NCBI GenBank assembly: GCA_964561955.1 | Contig: CAZLQO010000001.1 | Span: 1 to 26,642, forward strand | Origin: Candidatus Woesearchaeota archaeon | GTDB lineage: Archaea > Nanobdellota > Nanobdellia > Pacearchaeales > GW2011-AR1 | Reading direction: 5' to 3' | DNA: 26,642 bases | In this document: piece after piece, positions 70 to 22,793 of the stretch | Position numbering within the stretch: position 1 is the stretch's first letter | Layout of the letters: each line of letters opens with the position of its first letter | The notes under the pieces: generated by a model | Databases searched by the model: none | The model's input: the letters and a program-made list of their open reading frames with translations, nothing else | What the model was told of the DNA's origin: nothing | Position numbers and translations under genes: made by a program

Positions 70-107
70 TTGCAGGCGACAGGCGACAGGTGGCAGGCGA
101 CAGGTTG
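70..107 (+). repeat. Heptamer tandem array (CGACAGG-type, 5 units), downstream of rnhB
   Basis: TTGCAGG CGACAGG CGACAGG TGGCAGG CGACAGG read directly at 70-104. Confidence 0.9.
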
Positions 108-169
108 CTTGTTATCTTTATCTCTTTTTTTCATAAGTGAAAGAAGGGAAAGTTGGTTTTTAAGGATTG

Positions 170-820
170 TTAGAATAGTTTTCTTTGATTTGATTTGTGG
201 AGTTTTTTGATGGTGTTCCATGAGTGTCTTATTATGTCTTTATATATTGGGTTGTTGAAGTTTTCTGTTGCGAATTTTTTCGTTTTGGGGTCGGCGGGGT
301 AGCCTGAGCCGAAGTCGGTTTTTAGTTGGAGTTTTAGTTTATAGATTTCGTCTTCTCGTTTTTCTTTAGCTATGATTGAGGCGGCTGAAACTATTGGGTG
401 GTTAAGGTCGGCCTTGTGTTCGCAATTTAAGATAATGTTTTTTGGATTGTTTAGTAGTCTATGTACGTCTGTTGTCCAGGATTGGATGTTTACGGAGGGG
501 CAATCTATTATTACTTTGATTTTTTCGTTTAGGTTTTTGGTTAGTGTGTTTATTATTTTTGCGGCTTTTTCGGCTTCGAGAAGGTTTAGGTTTTTGTGGT
601 TGTCGATTTCGTTTGGGGTTGAGAGTTCGATGTGGTATTTGTATTTTTCTTTTATGATGTCGCCTATTTTTTTTCTTTGGGTTGGGGTTAGGAGTTTTGA
701 GTCTTTTGCGCCGAGTTTTTTTATTTTTGTTTCTTCTTTTTCTTCTATTAGGATGCCAGCGAGAATCATTGGGCCGAGGACAGGGCCTCTTCCGGCGTCG
801 TCTATTCCGAGGAGTTTCAT
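170..820 (-). CDS. rnhB: Ribonuclease HII
   Basis: GIDDAGRGPVLGP, DSK.L, ADLNHPIVSAASIIAK and DFGSGYPADP motifs; C-terminal QRKLF resembles a shortened PIP box. Confidence 0.96.
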   Translation of the reverse strand: MKLLGIDDAGRGPVLGPMILAGILIEEKEETKIKKLGAKDSKLLTPTQRKKIGDIIKEKYKYHIELSTPNEIDNHKNLNLLEAEKAAKIINTLTKNLNEKIKVIIDCPSVNIQSWTTDVHRLLNNPKNIILNCEHKADLNHPIVSAASIIAKEKREDEIYKLKLQLKTDFGSGYPADPKTKKFATENFNNPIYKDIIRHSWNTIKKLHKSNQRKLF

Positions 821-841
821 AAAGTATAAAGAAGAGAAAGC

Positions 842-849
842 TTTATAAT
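842..849 (+). promoter_or_regulatory. TATA-like box upstream of tRNA-Met
   Basis: TTTATAAT about 24 nt before the tRNA 5' end at 873. Confidence 0.6.
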
Positions 850-872
850 GGTTTTGAGATAGGTTGGTTTGT

Positions 873-989
873 AGCGGGGTGGAGCAGTCTGGTCAGCTCG
901 GCAGGCCCATAAGTAAGCCATAGGTTTTCATTCCTATGCGTTCGCCTAGGAAACCTGCAGGTCACGTGGTTCAAATCCCGTCCCCGCTA
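873..989 (+). tRNA. tRNA-Met(CAT), initiator-like (A1:U72), with a 41-nt intron at 37/38 (912-952)
   Basis: Acceptor AGCGGGG/CCCCGCT, anticodon stem GCAGG/CCTGC, TTCAAAT T-loop; relaxed bulge-helix-bulge at the junctions; intron hairpin CATAGG/CCTATG. Confidence 0.92.
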
Positions 990-1017
990 TTTGGGATTTT
1001 GTTATGGAGAAAATTTT

Positions 1018-1764
1018 ATGAGAGTTGCAGTATATAATCAGATGTTTGGATTGAAGGGGAGAAGTTTTTTTGGGAATGTGATGGGACATTATTTTGTGCA
1101 TTTCCAGAAGAAGCCGGAAAGGGTTGGGAAAATTGTTAGTTTGAATGAGACTTTTGAGGTTGTTGAGAAATCAGGGGTGGATGTTGTTGGGATTTGTGAG
1201 ATTTATGAGGGGCAAGAAAATGAAATTATTTTTGGTTTGGAAAAATTAGGATATAGGTATTTTTATTTTGGGAGGGGTCATCGATTCAAGTATAATGATA
1301 GACATGTGGTTGAGTTGATTGCTTCGAAGATTGAGGGTGAACAGTTGGATTATAGGATTTGGCCGATTGAGAATAGGCTTGGGGGTGGTGGAGGGTTTGT
1401 GGTTGTTCGATTTGGTGGGTTTAGTATCATGCATGTACATTTGGGATTACCGACTCGGGGAATGTTTAAGAAACAGATTGAATATATGCAAAAAATAATT
1501 AGTGAGTTAAAAGGGAAGGTAATTGTGATGGGGGATTTTAATTATAGTTGGTGTGATTTGAGTGAATATTTTCTAAGTTTTGATTTGGCTAGTGGTGGAG
1601 TCAAAACGTGTAGTTTGACTCCTATTATGCGTTGGCTATATAATAAAGATGTTGATCATGTTTTTTGTCGTGGATTTGGGGTTGGAAAATTTGGGACTTT
1701 TGAGAGCAGGTCGGATCATAAGTTGGTGTATGCTGATTTGAATTATGTGGGAGACAGGATTTGA
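1018..1764 (+). CDS. Endonuclease/exonuclease/phosphatase (EEP) family protein
   Basis: N-terminal YN, DVVGICEI, HVHL, MGDFN, DHVF and SDH motifs; ATG at 1018 preferred over TTG at 991; stop lies inside the antisense tRNA-Leu. Confidence 0.88.
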   Translation: MRVAVYNQMFGLKGRSFFGNVMGHYFVHFQKKPERVGKIVSLNETFEVVEKSGVDVVGICEIYEGQENEIIFGLEKLGYRYFYFGRGHRFKYNDRHVVELIASKIEGEQLDYRIWPIENRLGGGGGFVVVRFGGFSIMHVHLGLPTRGMFKKQIEYMQKIISELKGKVIVMGDFNYSWCDLSEYFLSFDLASGGVKTCSLTPIMRWLYNKDVDHVFCRGFGVGKFGTFESRSDHKLVYADLNYVGDRI

Positions 1765-1830
1765 ACCTGCGTAGGCATAAGCCACAGCCGCTTAAAGGCT
1801 GCCCGTTTGACCGGACTCCGGCACTCCCAC
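1746..1830 (-). tRNA. tRNA-Leu(TAA)
   Basis: Reverse complement folds as a type II cloverleaf: GTGGGAG/CTCCCAC, CAGCC-TTTAAGC-GGCTG, long variable arm, GGTTCAAATCC. Confidence 0.95.
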
Positions 1831-1889
1831 ATGTGATTTTTAGTTTTTGTTAGATTATAAGTTTTGTTGTTAGGGTTGTGTTTCGTTAG

Positions 1890-1926
1890 GAAATGAGGAA
1901 TGGGGAATAGGGAATGGGGGTAGGGG
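1890..1926 (+). repeat. Heptamer array (GGAATGG-type), intergenic, matches a G-quadruplex motif
   Basis: GAAATGA GGAATGG GGAATAG GGAATGG GGGTAGG. Confidence 0.85.
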
Positions 1927-1933
1927 CCATTTG

Positions 1934-21302: not shown

Positions 21303-21901
21303 TAGTCTATGTATTTGTCTATGAATTTATGTTTTCCTTTAGTCCCTTTGTACCAGAGCATTTTTGTGTAGCCGGTGTTGTCGATTTGGTTGAAGTCGAT
21401 TTCGAGTTCTTTGAGGGTGTTTGTGATTGCGTTGATTGCTTTTTTCACGTCGTGCTTTTGGCAGAGGTATTCGATTTCCATGAAGTAGCCGAGGTTATTG
21501 ACGAAGTTGATTTCGATTGAGATGTTTTTGTTTTTTTTGTGTTTGTAGGTTTCGTTTCGTTTGATTTTTTTGACCCATTCTTTGAAGCCGAAGTCTTTGA
21601 GAAGTGCCATTAAGTCTTCCATGCTTTCTTTGCCTTCGAGGTTGAATTCGAATTCTTGTTTTACGACGACTTCTTTTGTCCAAAGGTTTTTTAAATGTTT
21701 TTTAAAAGTGAGTTCGATTTTGTTCCCCATTGATCTAAATCGGAATGCTTTTTTTGGGAAGCCTTTTCTCTGGATTGCGAAATAGTCGTCGGATTTTGTG
21801 CCTCGCTTTTCGAATTTTGCGATTTGTTTGATTTTTTCTCTGAGAGCTGGGACTTGGTCGTCTTCGAGTTTTACTTTTGTTTCTACTTCTATTTGGACCA
21901 T
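21302..21901 (-). CDS. CYTH domain protein (class IV adenylate cyclase/triphosphatase fold)
   Basis: N-terminal EVETK (ExExK), LTFK, LGYFMEIE; TAATG overlap with acs. Confidence 0.88.
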   Translation of the reverse strand: MVQIEVETKVKLEDDQVPALREKIKQIAKFEKRGTKSDDYFAIQRKGFPKKAFRFRSMGNKIELTFKKHLKNLWTKEVVVKQEFEFNLEGKESMEDLMALLKDFGFKEWVKKIKRNETYKHKKNKNISIEINFVNNLGYFMEIEYLCQKHDVKKAINAITNTLKELEIDFNQIDNTGYTKMLWYKGTKGKHKFIDKYID

Positions 21902-21967
21902 TTTATCACCTTGGTAGATTAAGTTGGGGATTGTTTATAAATTTATGCGGGGTTTTGTATATTACAA

Positions 21968-22288
21968 TTACATTAATCCTTGGTCGTCGATGCCTGAGTC
22001 TTCGTTGTCTGTCGCTGTTGGTTCTACTTGGGTTGCTTGTTGCTTGTGGCTTGTTGCTTGTGGCTGTAGGTCTTCTGGGTTGATTGAGTTAATTATTTTT
22101 TTGAAATCTTCGAATTTCCCGGCGGGGATTCTTAATCCTTTTTTTGTCGGTCCGGTGTAGGTTTCGCTTTTGGTGAATTCTCGGATGTCTACTCCGGTTT
22201 TCCCGTTGTATTCTTTAATCCCGATGACGATTTCCGTTGTGGTTCCTTGGTATTCGCCTTTTGGGATTTTCCCGATTTCTTTTTCCAT
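21968..22288 (-). CDS. PC4/p15-like ssDNA-binding protein
   Basis: EYNGKTGVDIREF...PTKKGLRIP PC4 signature; acidic low-complexity tail. Confidence 0.85.
   Translation of the reverse strand: MEKEIGKIPKGEYQGTTTEIVIGIKEYNGKTGVDIREFTKSETYTGPTKKGLRIPAGKFEDFKKIINSINPEDLQPQATSHKQQATQVEPTATDNEDSGIDDQGLM
22033..22067 (+). repeat. In-frame heptamer array (TTGCTTG/TGGCTTG) in the PC4 tail
   Basis: TTGCTTG TTGCTTG TGGCTTG TTGCTTG TGGCTGT; encodes QPQATSHKQQAT. Confidence 0.88.
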
Positions 22289-22345
22289 GGTTGATTAAAA
22301 ATTGAGTGGTTTATAAGAATTTGGGTGGGTTGAATTATTTTTGTA

Positions 22346-22426
22346 CGCCCACAGCAGGAATCGAACCTGCGAGCCCCGAAGGGCCCGGATTAGCAATCCG
22401 GTGCAATACCACTATGCGATGTGGGC
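22346..22426 (-). tRNA. tRNA-Ser(GCT)
   Basis: GCCCACA/TGTGGGC, CCGGA-TTGCTAA-TCCGG, long variable arm, GGTTCGATTCC, G discriminator. Confidence 0.95.
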
Positions 22427-22450
22427 ATGATTTTATTTGGGGCGGAAGTA

Positions 22451-22458
22451 TTATAAAG
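22451..22458. promoter_or_regulatory. TATA-like box between divergent tRNA-Ser and SRP RNA
   Basis: TTATAAAG roughly 20-25 nt from both RNA 5' ends. Confidence 0.6.
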
Positions 22459-22478
22459 CTTTTGTGGGTTTGTTTTTT

Positions 22479-22734
22479 GTAGGCAGGTCGGCGAGTTAGC
22501 CCCTCGCTATTCGCAAACGGGCTTTATGGCGGACTGCAAGGCAAGGCGTGAGATGAAGCTTTCGATGTTGTCGGTTTGACGTTGAGGTTTTGTCCTTTTT
22601 GATCTTGCTTTGATGAAGTGGGTCAGGTCGGGAACGAAGCAGCCCTAAGTTAAGGTTTGGGTGCTTAAAGGGTCGCAGAACTGAGGATTATCGATAACCT
22701 CTCGGTTGTGGATTTGAGCTACTTGCTGGCCTAC
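22479..22734 (+). ncRNA. ffs: Signal recognition particle (7S) RNA
   Basis: Helix 8 signature GGGT-CAGG-TCG-GGAA-CGA-AGCA-GCCC at 22620-22645; terminal pairing GTAGGC/GCCTAC. Confidence 0.88.
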
Positions 22735-22757
22735 TTGAAAATCTTTGATTTTCAAGT
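22733..22757. other. Perfect 11-bp hairpin at the 3' end of the SRP RNA
   Basis: ACTTGAAAATC-TTT-GATTTTCAAGT. Confidence 0.75.
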
Positions 22758-22762
22758 GATGT

Positions 22763-22793
22763 TGGGTTGTGGGTGTTGGGTCGCTTCGCTTGT
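22763..22793 (+). repeat. Heptamer run followed by a copy of the korB 16-mer core
   Basis: TGGGTTG TGGGTGT TGGGTCG, then GGTCGCTTCGCTTGT at 22779-22793. Confidence 0.7.

Follow-up and report, generated by a model that had tools for sequence, protein, structure and literature searches.

Conserved genes of the archaeal genome G000, a metagenome-assembled genome (MAG) of Candidatus Woesearchaeota, carry short head-to-tail tracts of 7-nt units that are read in frame into the encoded proteins. The stretch analysed here (the window; 26,642 nt) is the whole of contig C1 of this MAG (532 kb, 95 contigs, 69% complete), which originates from lake-water metagenomes and whose relatives carry the labels Pacearchaeota, Woesearchaeota or Nanoarchaeota. 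G-numbered labels other than G000 denote genomes of relatives, and L-numbered labels denote loci from relatives. The tracts form a single family with an excess of period 7 and a peak in length; they include replacements of unique sequence, change in concert, are phylogenetically restricted, and are associated both physically and across genomes with genes of the PF05635 family. To judge from the sequences, the family is lineage-specific, with CGACAGG as its sense-strand consensus, repeated about 4.5 times within a tract of about 32 nt. Heptamer arrays and mini-hairpins evidently constitute one mosaic repeat system, which also forms the arms of multi-copy PF05635/TIGR02436 cassettes. The explanation favoured here, held with about even confidence, is that the solo tracts would be gene-less derivatives of these cassette arms, put in place and renewed in patches of about 32 nt, with their translation a by-product.

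Abundance, units and strand setting of the tracts

Perfect period-7 arrays of at least 3 copies number 31 in G000, whereas none arose in any of five simulations under an order-3 Markov model; periods 6, 8 and 9 yield 7, 1 and 0 such arrays in G000; the genome-wide scan proposed in an earlier sequence-only reading of this DNA thus came out as that reading expected. The same excess is reflected by Tandem Repeats Finder (TRF), with 38 rows scoring at least 45 for period 7 and 2, 3 and 1 for periods 6, 8 and 9. A tolerant scan of G000 returned 41 tracts, 39 of them spanned by open reading frames (ORFs) no shorter than 130 aa; hosts with Pfam matches contain 27 tracts, and the tracts are predominantly found in ORFs, not in intergenic DNA. 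Outside the window, the hosts are topoisomerase I, the ValRS-type, LeuRS, PheRS and ProRS synthetases, GatB, GatE, DNA ligase, the large subunit of DNA polymerase D, ribosomal proteins S17 and L6, a GTPase, shikimate dehydrogenase, an M16 peptidase and a thioredoxin-reductase-like enzyme. The tract of the DNA polymerase D subunit is a perfect (CGACAGG)x4.4 within the region of the catalytic domain (G000:C7:12745-12775).

An artefact of assembly, which the sequence-only reading had named as one way in which the pattern could be spurious, or of binning has next to no probability. Contigs built at k=31 do break where arrays are shared, and several arrays are close to contig ends; however, every host reading frame is intact (including those at all in-gene tracts of the window), and orthologous arrays are present in MAGs from other studies and assemblers. 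Independent k=31 Logan contigs from four lake metagenomes reproduce the tracts, one of them spanning 3500-10468 gap-free, and show no indels at arrays, although contigs hide minority variants. Length data for all tracts derive from contigs, not raw reads, and the MAGs are incomplete. No palindromy was found in the tracts: they are direct repeats, 19-40 nt in length, and lack self-complementarity.

Units within 2 changes of sense-strand CGACAGG occur in 20 of the 39 ORF-embedded tracts (orientation: 30 sense, 6 antisense), and CGACAGG-derived units are found at no fewer than 20 loci genome-wide. This recurrence agrees with the claim of the sequence-only reading that one unit shared by unrelated loci is hard to explain by independent local slippage. 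Genes with a C+A-rich sense strand carry CGACAAG, CGACCAG, CGACAAC and CAACAAC, while those with a G+T-rich sense strand carry CGACAGG, CGACAGA, TGACAGG and GGACAGA. Most units are apparently derived from CGACAGG and eroded along the bias between the G+T and the A+C strand. TGGCTTG, TCGTTTG and TTGGTTG correspond to TCGCTTG after loss of C bases (both of them in TTGGTTG), as the strand bias predicts, and C on the G-rich strand amounts to 16.4% in the tracts as against 11.3% in the genome. The encoded peptides follow an xQxTxDx pattern and are rich in R, T, Q, S, G and D. In IleRS and Dph5 the peptide is SDKRQATSDKR and in KorA it is ATSDKRQATSD (CAAGCGA unit); the translations thus confirm the SDKRQATS-type sequence predicted to emerge in any frame. 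The accompanying idea of a system that writes peptides found no support; the peptides resemble a side product, tolerated by the proteins, of a repeat that operates at the level of DNA.

G000 is also notable for its extreme strand bias. The absolute GC skew is 0.11-0.61 on all 95 contigs (mostly 0.25-0.57), and the AT skew is opposite in sign on all but two contigs, where it is about 0. Third codon positions contain 43% G, 44.5% T and 2.5% C on one strand (88% G+T), and 45% A, 38% C and 6.6% G on the other (84% A+C); amino-acid usage differs accordingly by strand, with G and V on one and T, N, I, Q and P on the other. There is no bias of gene orientation in G000 (134 vs 156 long ORFs), and only one, marginal, switch of skew sign occurs among 32 contigs of at least 6 kb. 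The sole precedent found for this asymmetry is the whole-strand G/C disparity of some Microgenomates of the Candidate Phyla Radiation (PMC7143001). Extreme skew was rejected as a sufficient cause of the arrays: G005 and G036 are strongly skewed and contain no arrays in about 40 kb each, while G032, G037 and G050 are both strongly skewed and array-bearing.

Tract length and change at orthologous sites

The lengths of perfect tracts are bimodal, with one class decaying over 17-20 nt and a second peak at 30-33 nt. In G000, 18 of 49 tracts measure 30-34 nt, and in the relatives 25 of 86 measure 30-33 nt; no perfect tract longer than 36 nt was found in 1.9 Mb from several assembly pipelines. Relative to array-free congeners, the net length is +45 nt in ABCE1 (tract 1), +42 nt in IleRS, +45 nt at the C-terminus of Dph5, +24 nt in KorA, +6 and +3 nt in ArgRS (tracts 1 and 2, respectively) and 0 nt at KorB 17611. 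Since ArgRS tract 2 adds just 3 nt, it takes the place of the ancestral loop. A young ileS tract specific to G057, (TGGCTTG)3(TCGCTTG)2, is 35 nt long and occupies a stretch that in five other genomes is unique sequence, the alignment being gap-free; a further G057 tract is a clean insertion of 30 nt. Tracts can thus overwrite as well as insert; several of the 'inserts' of the sequence-only reading are replacements with little or no net change in length (KorB 17611 and the two ArgRS sites), as is the G057 ileS tract (net 0). Most of the net gains cannot be divided by 21 nt; a clear difference of 3 units was seen only in the G057 allele of dph5, whose C-terminal tract is shorter by exactly 21 nt.

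At orthologous sites of G000, G057 and G049, the period is equal and the length nearly equal, while the unit has changed in all copies together (GGGCCGT, GGGTCGT and AGTTGGA in ArgRS; CGACAAG, CGACAAA and, at L037, CGACAAC in KorA; TGACAGG and GGTAGTT in KorB). Such a change of every copy reads as concerted evolution or repeated rewriting. Array-bearing loops of G000 (ABCE1, IleRS, ArgRS and KorB sites) hold different inserts in other congeners, which supports the earlier impression that the insert sites are variable loops or termini. The phylogenetic range of the units is narrow: (TCGCTTG)3 is present in 3 of 49 congeners, (CGACNNN)x3.6 in 5 of 251 genomes of the order (all five in the genus of G000), and (GACAGNN)x3.7 in G000 and G057, with single matches in G041 and G059. 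No donor for the compound ileS tract of G057 was found in G057; a near-identical compound is located in another gene of G000. Local-seed matches of 6/7 do occur and are, by estimate, no more than chance would give in T/G-rich sequence.

Monophyly of the KorA array allele was rejected (p-AU 2e-7, approximately unbiased test). In the KorA tree, G045 is nested among the carriers with the ancestral sequence, and L037 is placed outside them with the array; the tract is absent from the 45 other relatives compared, G045 included. A single gain followed by vertical descent therefore fails at KorA, and the pattern probably reflects recombination or repeated origin, with recombination among congeners moving alleles. 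A recombination mosaic was also observed in argS (5950-6900), where the central 1 kb shares 50-58% identity with the otherwise syntenic G057 and about 56-80% (mostly 60-77%) with G005, G036 and G041; at either end, the similarity to G057 is 80-90%. The right edge of the mosaic is close to the tract at 6838-6882.

Two further elements were observed. An element of 32-36 nt, CCCTCAC-(AT-rich, about 15-20 nt)-TTGGTTGGGGCA, forms an imperfect hairpin and is located at L029 (G049:C44) 2308-2342, L140 (G041:C1) 14181-14215, L127 (G060) 492-549, L126 (G050) 641-757 and G000:C51 2259-2290. It lies in frame in KorB (G049) and ABCE1 (G041 and G060, nested in the latter) and in tandem in G050. Direct repeats flank it: a 23-mer in G049, which corresponds to a plain tandem duplication at positions 17725-17773 of the window, and CGGAGTT heptamers in G041; a total of 35 + 7 = 42 nt would preserve the frame. 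The second in-frame element, about 54 nt long, contains a GGGCAC..GTGCC hairpin (compensatory GGCGC..GCGCC in G003) and encodes a SVPSKVGTGVPS-like peptide. It was seen in the ArgRS loops of G036 (L141+L142) and G003 (L134+L135) and in the ABCE1 loop of G015 (L027+L138), i.e., in varied core genes of array-poor congeners, at loops that bear heptamer tracts in G000.

PF05635 genes and the proposed origin of the tracts

The sequence-only reading had listed four-helix-bundle or bAvd-like genes among the candidate associates of the arrays, and this suggestion proved fruitful: PF05635 genes are multi-copy, co-distributed with arrays and flanked by heptamer arrays. PF05635 matches number 12 in G000, 5-6 in each of G057, G049, G045 and G041, 2-16 in several other congeners and 0-1 in about 30 congeners; outside the genus, two single matches were obtained in 147 genomes from 111 other genera of the family. 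With 24-113 kb sampled per relative and the whole 532 kb for G000, perfect period-7 arrays were found in 10 of 10 congeners with at least 3 PF05635 copies (1.7-14.5 per 100 kb) and in none of 233 kb from seven congeners with 0-1 copies. At loci chosen only through ArgRS or KorA, irrespective of arrays and of PF05635, the PF05635-rich genomes contain 9 arrays in 59 kb (all nine in G057, G049 and G045), as against 1 in 147 kb.

The association is also physical. Arrays are situated 31-124 nt from PF05635 genes in G032, G037, G050, G035, G045 and G041. In G000, the cassettes are preceded by heptamer words and TTCG-loop mini-hairpins, often with a GACTTGG word. Five of six single-copy carriers have heptamer words or arrays flanking the gene: the tracts are perfect in G059, G006 and G017, while G008 and G295 (the latter from another genus) have looser words. 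The examined cassettes sit between protein-coding genes.

The G000 protein scores above the cut-offs of PF05635 (129 bits vs 33.8) and TIGR02436 (126 vs 24), while it fails the Avd equivalog NF033474 (25.7 bits vs cut-off 80). Relatives in the PDB are 2GSC (E=8e-20) and 2RLD, both five-chain entries; XCC0516, one such relative, originates from a strain of Xanthomonas campestris. PF05635 is regarded as a homologue of Avd, a helper of diversity-generating retroelements (DGRs) (PMC10053308), and the Coxiella intervening sequence (IVS) with its PF05635-type ORF has been described as selfish DNA (PMC4990558). No Avd equivalog beside a reverse transcriptase is present in G000. Its two reverse-transcriptase genes (G000:C3:9480-10088, minus strand; G000:C21:4687-5322, plus strand; ORFs of about 340 aa), probably of DGR type, are not adjacent to strong PF05635 genes, and all 12 PF05635 matches are on contigs without a reverse-transcriptase gene.

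The other generators proposed in the sequence-only reading (reverse transcriptase, REP-associated transposase and primase-polymerase) were discarded, as none of them tracks the arrays. Reverse transcriptase (PF00078) occurs in 19 of 49 congeners, many of them array-free, and was not found in the array-rich G057; the Y1/RAYT transposase (PF01797) was not found in G000, G057 and G041; Prim-Pol is absent from all five genomes tested. NucS/EndoMS is nearly absent across the genus and does not discriminate.

If the favoured explanation is correct, whole patches of about 30-35 nt would enter the DNA, being either added or written over an equal length of unique sequence. Tracts would persist at fixed sites through speciation and would be re-homogenised repeatedly, such that a point change reaches all copies while period and length stay constant. 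Strand-specific mutation pressure would erode them (e.g., TCGCTTG to TGGCTTG, TCGTTTG or TTGGTTG); in genes, only in-frame, stop-free tracts in tolerant loops would survive, to be translated into hydrophilic xQxTxDx peptides as a by-product. We infer that writing proceeds by patches rather than by unit-by-unit growth and that the PF05635 protein acts on the tracts; that a PF05635 pentamer would read five heptamers (35 nt) is a guess. A more far-reaching proposal, which is somewhat doubtful, is that PF05635 pentamers and heptamer tracts might together form an unrecognised tract-writing or mobile system that measures about five heptamers and overwrites or inserts patches with a host polymerase or reverse transcriptase.

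Several observations weigh against these proposals. The match between a pentamer and 35 nt is so far a numerical coincidence, and patch-writing is proposed from sequence comparison. Stepwise slippage predicts both the 21-nt difference in dph5 between G000 and G057 and the compound arrays, selection at the peptide level could yield the sense bias, and the consensus CGACAGG was picked post hoc from the data. G046 (83% complete, 110 contigs) has CGACCAC arrays and just one weak Avd-like PF05635 match, and perfect heptamer tracts are close to only 2 of 11 G000 cassettes, the remainder having looser word-plus-hairpin modules. Finally, the association between PF05635 and arrays comes mostly from related genomes of one genus, which as kin are non-independent, and the sampling was partly centred on PF05635 genes or array matches.

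Ordinary slippage is a serious rival, possible although not the expected answer. The tracts would then be heptanucleotide microsatellites that grow from local seeds and are homogenised by slippage in 7-nt steps, perhaps set by the footprint of the polymerase; selection would keep in-frame, stop-free, hydrophilic loop tracts, and the co-occurrence with PF05635 would be a side effect of blooming repeat DNA. Concerted evolution, compound or alternating units, dph5 alleles exactly 3 units apart and possible 6/7 local seeds at KorA and in the G057 ileS all fit it, as does a tract in DNA polymerase D itself, and both the heptamer excess among long bacterial simple sequence repeats (SSRs) and the footprint idea have been published (as summarised in PMC4692102). 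The length spectrum, however, is neither decaying nor broad but has a tight peak at 30-33 nt with a hard ceiling; replacements keep the same length, net changes of 24, 30 and 45 nt are unreachable by 21-nt steps, a single unit family recurs at more than 20 unrelated loci, and length variants were not seen among the contigs of four samples. G005 and G036, which are comparably skewed, lack both PF05635 and arrays. Slippage thus leaves the length peak, the equal-length replacements and the link to PF05635 unaccounted for.

Self-propagation without a dedicated protein, by ectopic template switching or short-patch gene conversion, is considered unlikely. Here a nascent 3' end would pair with any array in one of several registers, copy a few units and return, so that arrays seed and homogenise one another. 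Identical 31-mers common to ileS, dph5 and korA do tangle k=31 graphs (joints 10470 to 18726 and 11500 to 18726), the microhomology TTTGTCG lies beside same-length replacements, and the non-monophyletic KorA allele together with the argS mosaic indicates active recombination among congeners; yet the young compound tract has no identical donor found in G057, and period 7, the length peak and the restriction to PF05635 genomes are left unexplained. Least expected among the biological alternatives, and improbable, are selected cis-elements on DNA or mRNA (protein-binding sites, G-quadruplexes or pause sites) or functional peptide modules. Site, period and length are conserved across species though the sequence changes, units such as GGGCCGT, AATGGGG and ATGGGTG conform to the G3N4 quadruplex motif considered in work on Xanthomonas and Nostoc repeats (PMC4692102), and TAACTGA heptamer repeats have been proposed as regulator sites (PMC4679880). 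Against such a role, the host genes are unrelated, most units cannot form a quadruplex, the same proteins of close congeners do without tracts, the unit is not conserved per site, and the peptides are low-complexity and variable among species.

Tracts of the window and comparison with known systems

Positions of the 15 tracts of the window were obtained by TRF and direct reading, and the identities of the host genes by Pfam, which confirmed the earlier calls of ABCE1, ArgRS, IleRS, Dph5, the POR/KOR beta and alpha subunits and PC4. G057 contig C3 is syntenic with the entire window. The arrays counted in the sequence-only reading (at least 13, nine genic and four intergenic) are real and lie at or close to the positions given there, while their number had to be corrected: argS and korB carry two tracts each, and there are therefore 11 coding tracts (in ABCE1, ArgRS, IleRS, Dph5, KorB, KorA and PC4) besides the four intergenic ones. 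Three of the 15 are weak or degenerate.

Table 1. Period-7 tracts of the window, with their setting and the state of the same site in relatives
Tract	Position	Strand	Basis	Setting and same site in relatives
Intergenic (CAGGCGA)x4.6, CGACAGG family	73..104	+	TRF, direct reading	Downstream of rnhB (170-820, minus strand); counterpart not found at the syntenic place in G057
Mosaic: (AATGGGG)x4, then 2 small hairpins	1892..1975	+	heptamer part at 1892-1919	Upstream of tRNA-Leu (1745-1831, minus strand)
ABCE1 tract 1, AGACGAC / AGATGAC	3933..3953	+	TRF, direct reading	Within the lineage-specific insert, Fe-S domain; G057 (GGTCGCC)x4
ABCE1 tract 2, degenerate GGTGTCA GAGATCA GGCGTCA GGTGTCA	4980..5008	+	direct reading	Orthologous to perfect (TCGCAAG)x4.6 in G057; absent from G005, G007, G036, G003
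G-rich degenerate repeat, period 7-9	5584..5632	+	TRF, direct reading	Intergenic ABCE1/argS; G049 (TCGCTAT)-type words
ArgRS tract 1, GGAGTCG-type, degenerate, 21-nt superperiod	6838..6882	+	TRF	G057 (AGTCGGA)x4; G049 CAGGTGG-type words
ArgRS tract 2, perfect (GGGCCGT)x4.6	7046..7077	+	TRF; spanned by independent contig	G057 (GGGTCGT)x4.6; G049 (AGTTGGA)x4.4
IleRS, sense (CGACAAG)x5	10438..10472	-	TRF, translation	CGACAAG also in G049; TTCGGTG in G057
Dph5 C-terminal compound tract, (TTCGCTG)x3.9 + (TCGCTTG)x4.9	11446..11503	-	TRF, translation	
Dph5 N-terminal tract, GCTTGTC / GCTGGTC alternating, 14-nt superperiod	12116..12149	-	TRF	
KorB, (TGACAGG)x3.9 on plus strand, antisense to korB	17611..17637	-	TRF	G049 (GGTAGTT)x4, equal length
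KorB N-terminal extension, 23-mer x2.1 + 16-mers	17725..17805	-	TRF, translation	G049: 35-nt hairpin element between the two 23-mers
KorA, sense (CGACAAG)x4.6	18728..18759	-	TRF, translation	CGACAAA in G049; CGACAAC in L037; 14-nt period in G057
PC4 C-terminal linker, (GTTGCTT / GTGGCTT)x4.9	22032..22065	-	TRF	
Intergenic (TGTTGGG)x3 plus GGTCGCTTCGCTTGT	22760..22793	+	TRF, direct reading	Directly 3' of the signal recognition particle (SRP) RNA

The hairpins of the mosaic near tRNA-Leu are GGGAAC-TTCG-GTTCCC and GGGCGG-CTTTT-CCGCCC; its array-plus-hairpin architecture is like that of the regions upstream of PF05635 genes, although its fold z-score is only -1.7. The 23- and 16-mers of the KorB N-terminal extension hold the heptamer TCGCTTG and the mini-hairpin word GCTTCGC, and the PC4 tract is apparently an eroded TCGCTTG. 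GCTTCGC (complement GCGAAGC) and similar TTCG-loop mini-hairpins accompany heptamers at 17725-17805, at 22779-22793 and upstream of G000 PF05635 genes; d(GCGAAGC) forms an unusually stable DNA mini-hairpin. On the plus strand at 868-990, a putative intron-containing tRNA with a CAT anticodon was recognised by eye (5' half GCGGGGTGGAGCAG..., 3' half ...GGTTCAAATCCCGTCCCCGC); neither ARAGORN nor Rfam called it.

Both the short tandemly repeated repetitive sequences (STRR) of cyanobacteria and an excess of heptamers among long SSRs have been described (Mazel 1990; Mrazek, Guo and Shah 2007, as summarised in PMC4692102), and the G-rich GGGAATC repeats of Xanthomonas and GGGGAYT repeats of Nostoc are unexplained in origin (PMC4692102). 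G000 resembles the STRR and long SSRs in its head-to-tail, related 7-nt units in short arrays dispersed over many loci, in the over-representation of period 7, in sites common to related species with varying sequence and length, and in an origin left unexplained. In contrast to those repeats, which are overwhelmingly intergenic, at least 30 of 41 tracts in G000 are in frame in conserved genes; the host is archaeal, the length is quantised near 32 nt, and the units are different. TAACTGA repeats occur in 2-6 tandem copies at more than 100 loci in Beggiatoaceae, cyanobacteria and Bacteroidetes (PMC4679880). They likewise involve one heptamer with a patchy phylogeny and unexplained dispersal, related heptamers being rare, but most lie just 5' of start codons, and a stop triplet (TAA/TGA) is part of the unit, whereas the G000 units are stop-free and translated.

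In Coxiella and Leptospira, 23S rRNA contains an IVS with an S23p/PF05635 ORF (PMC4990558). The IVS/Avd elements and the G000-type cassettes share a small four-helix-bundle ORF between repeat arms, selfish-DNA behaviour and the same family by hidden Markov model; the IVS is located in rRNA, while the examined cassettes lie between protein genes and have heptamer arrays as arms. An S23p ORF between repeat arms is found with heptamer arms in G059, G006, G017 and G295 and with upstream mosaics in G000.

A literature search for tandem repeats or GC skew in DPANN/Pacearchaeota, for in-frame heptamers in DPANN core genes and for a link to PF05635 found nothing. The STRR, GGGAATC and TAACTGA repeats have been known for decades without a mechanism, and the G000 lineage offers three handles on them. 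As the tracts are inside conserved genes, ancestral states and exact event sizes are readable from orthologues; close species with and without tracts are available in one genus; and PF05635/TIGR02436, of solved structure, tracks the tracts genome-wide and physically. Together, these handles turn a descriptive puzzle into an experiment in binding and genetics. The tracts further show that a repeat whose unit length is not divisible by three can be maintained in over 25 essential genes. Contingency-locus microsatellites are polymorphic in length within populations, and their length changes turn genes on and off through shifts of frame (phase variation). The G000 tracts are in frame in essential genes and show no array indels in the four-sample contigs, which hide minority variants.

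Rickettsia palindromic elements (about 100-150 bp) are placed in frame in surface loops of unrelated housekeeping genes. The G000 tracts are likewise short in-frame repeats in housekeeping genes, but are tandem heptamers of 19-40 nt instead of palindromes. In Borgs, as in G000, perfect tandem repeats give rise to disordered protein segments; the in-gene units of Borgs are divisible by 3, whereas the 7-nt unit of G000 is not. In the REP/REPIN-RAYT systems (repetitive extragenic palindromic sequences with their associated tyrosine transposase), gene-less repeats are numerous, and the protein encoded by a few gene-bearing copies acts on the repeats. The layout in G000 is analogous, although no Y1 transposase was found in G000, G057 and G041 and PF05635 is without known catalytic activity. 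Finally, the proposed tract-writing would resemble DGR retrohoming in that both swap a stretch for a copy of equal length, and, if true, such a system would account for STRR-type heptamer repeats across bacteria and archaea.

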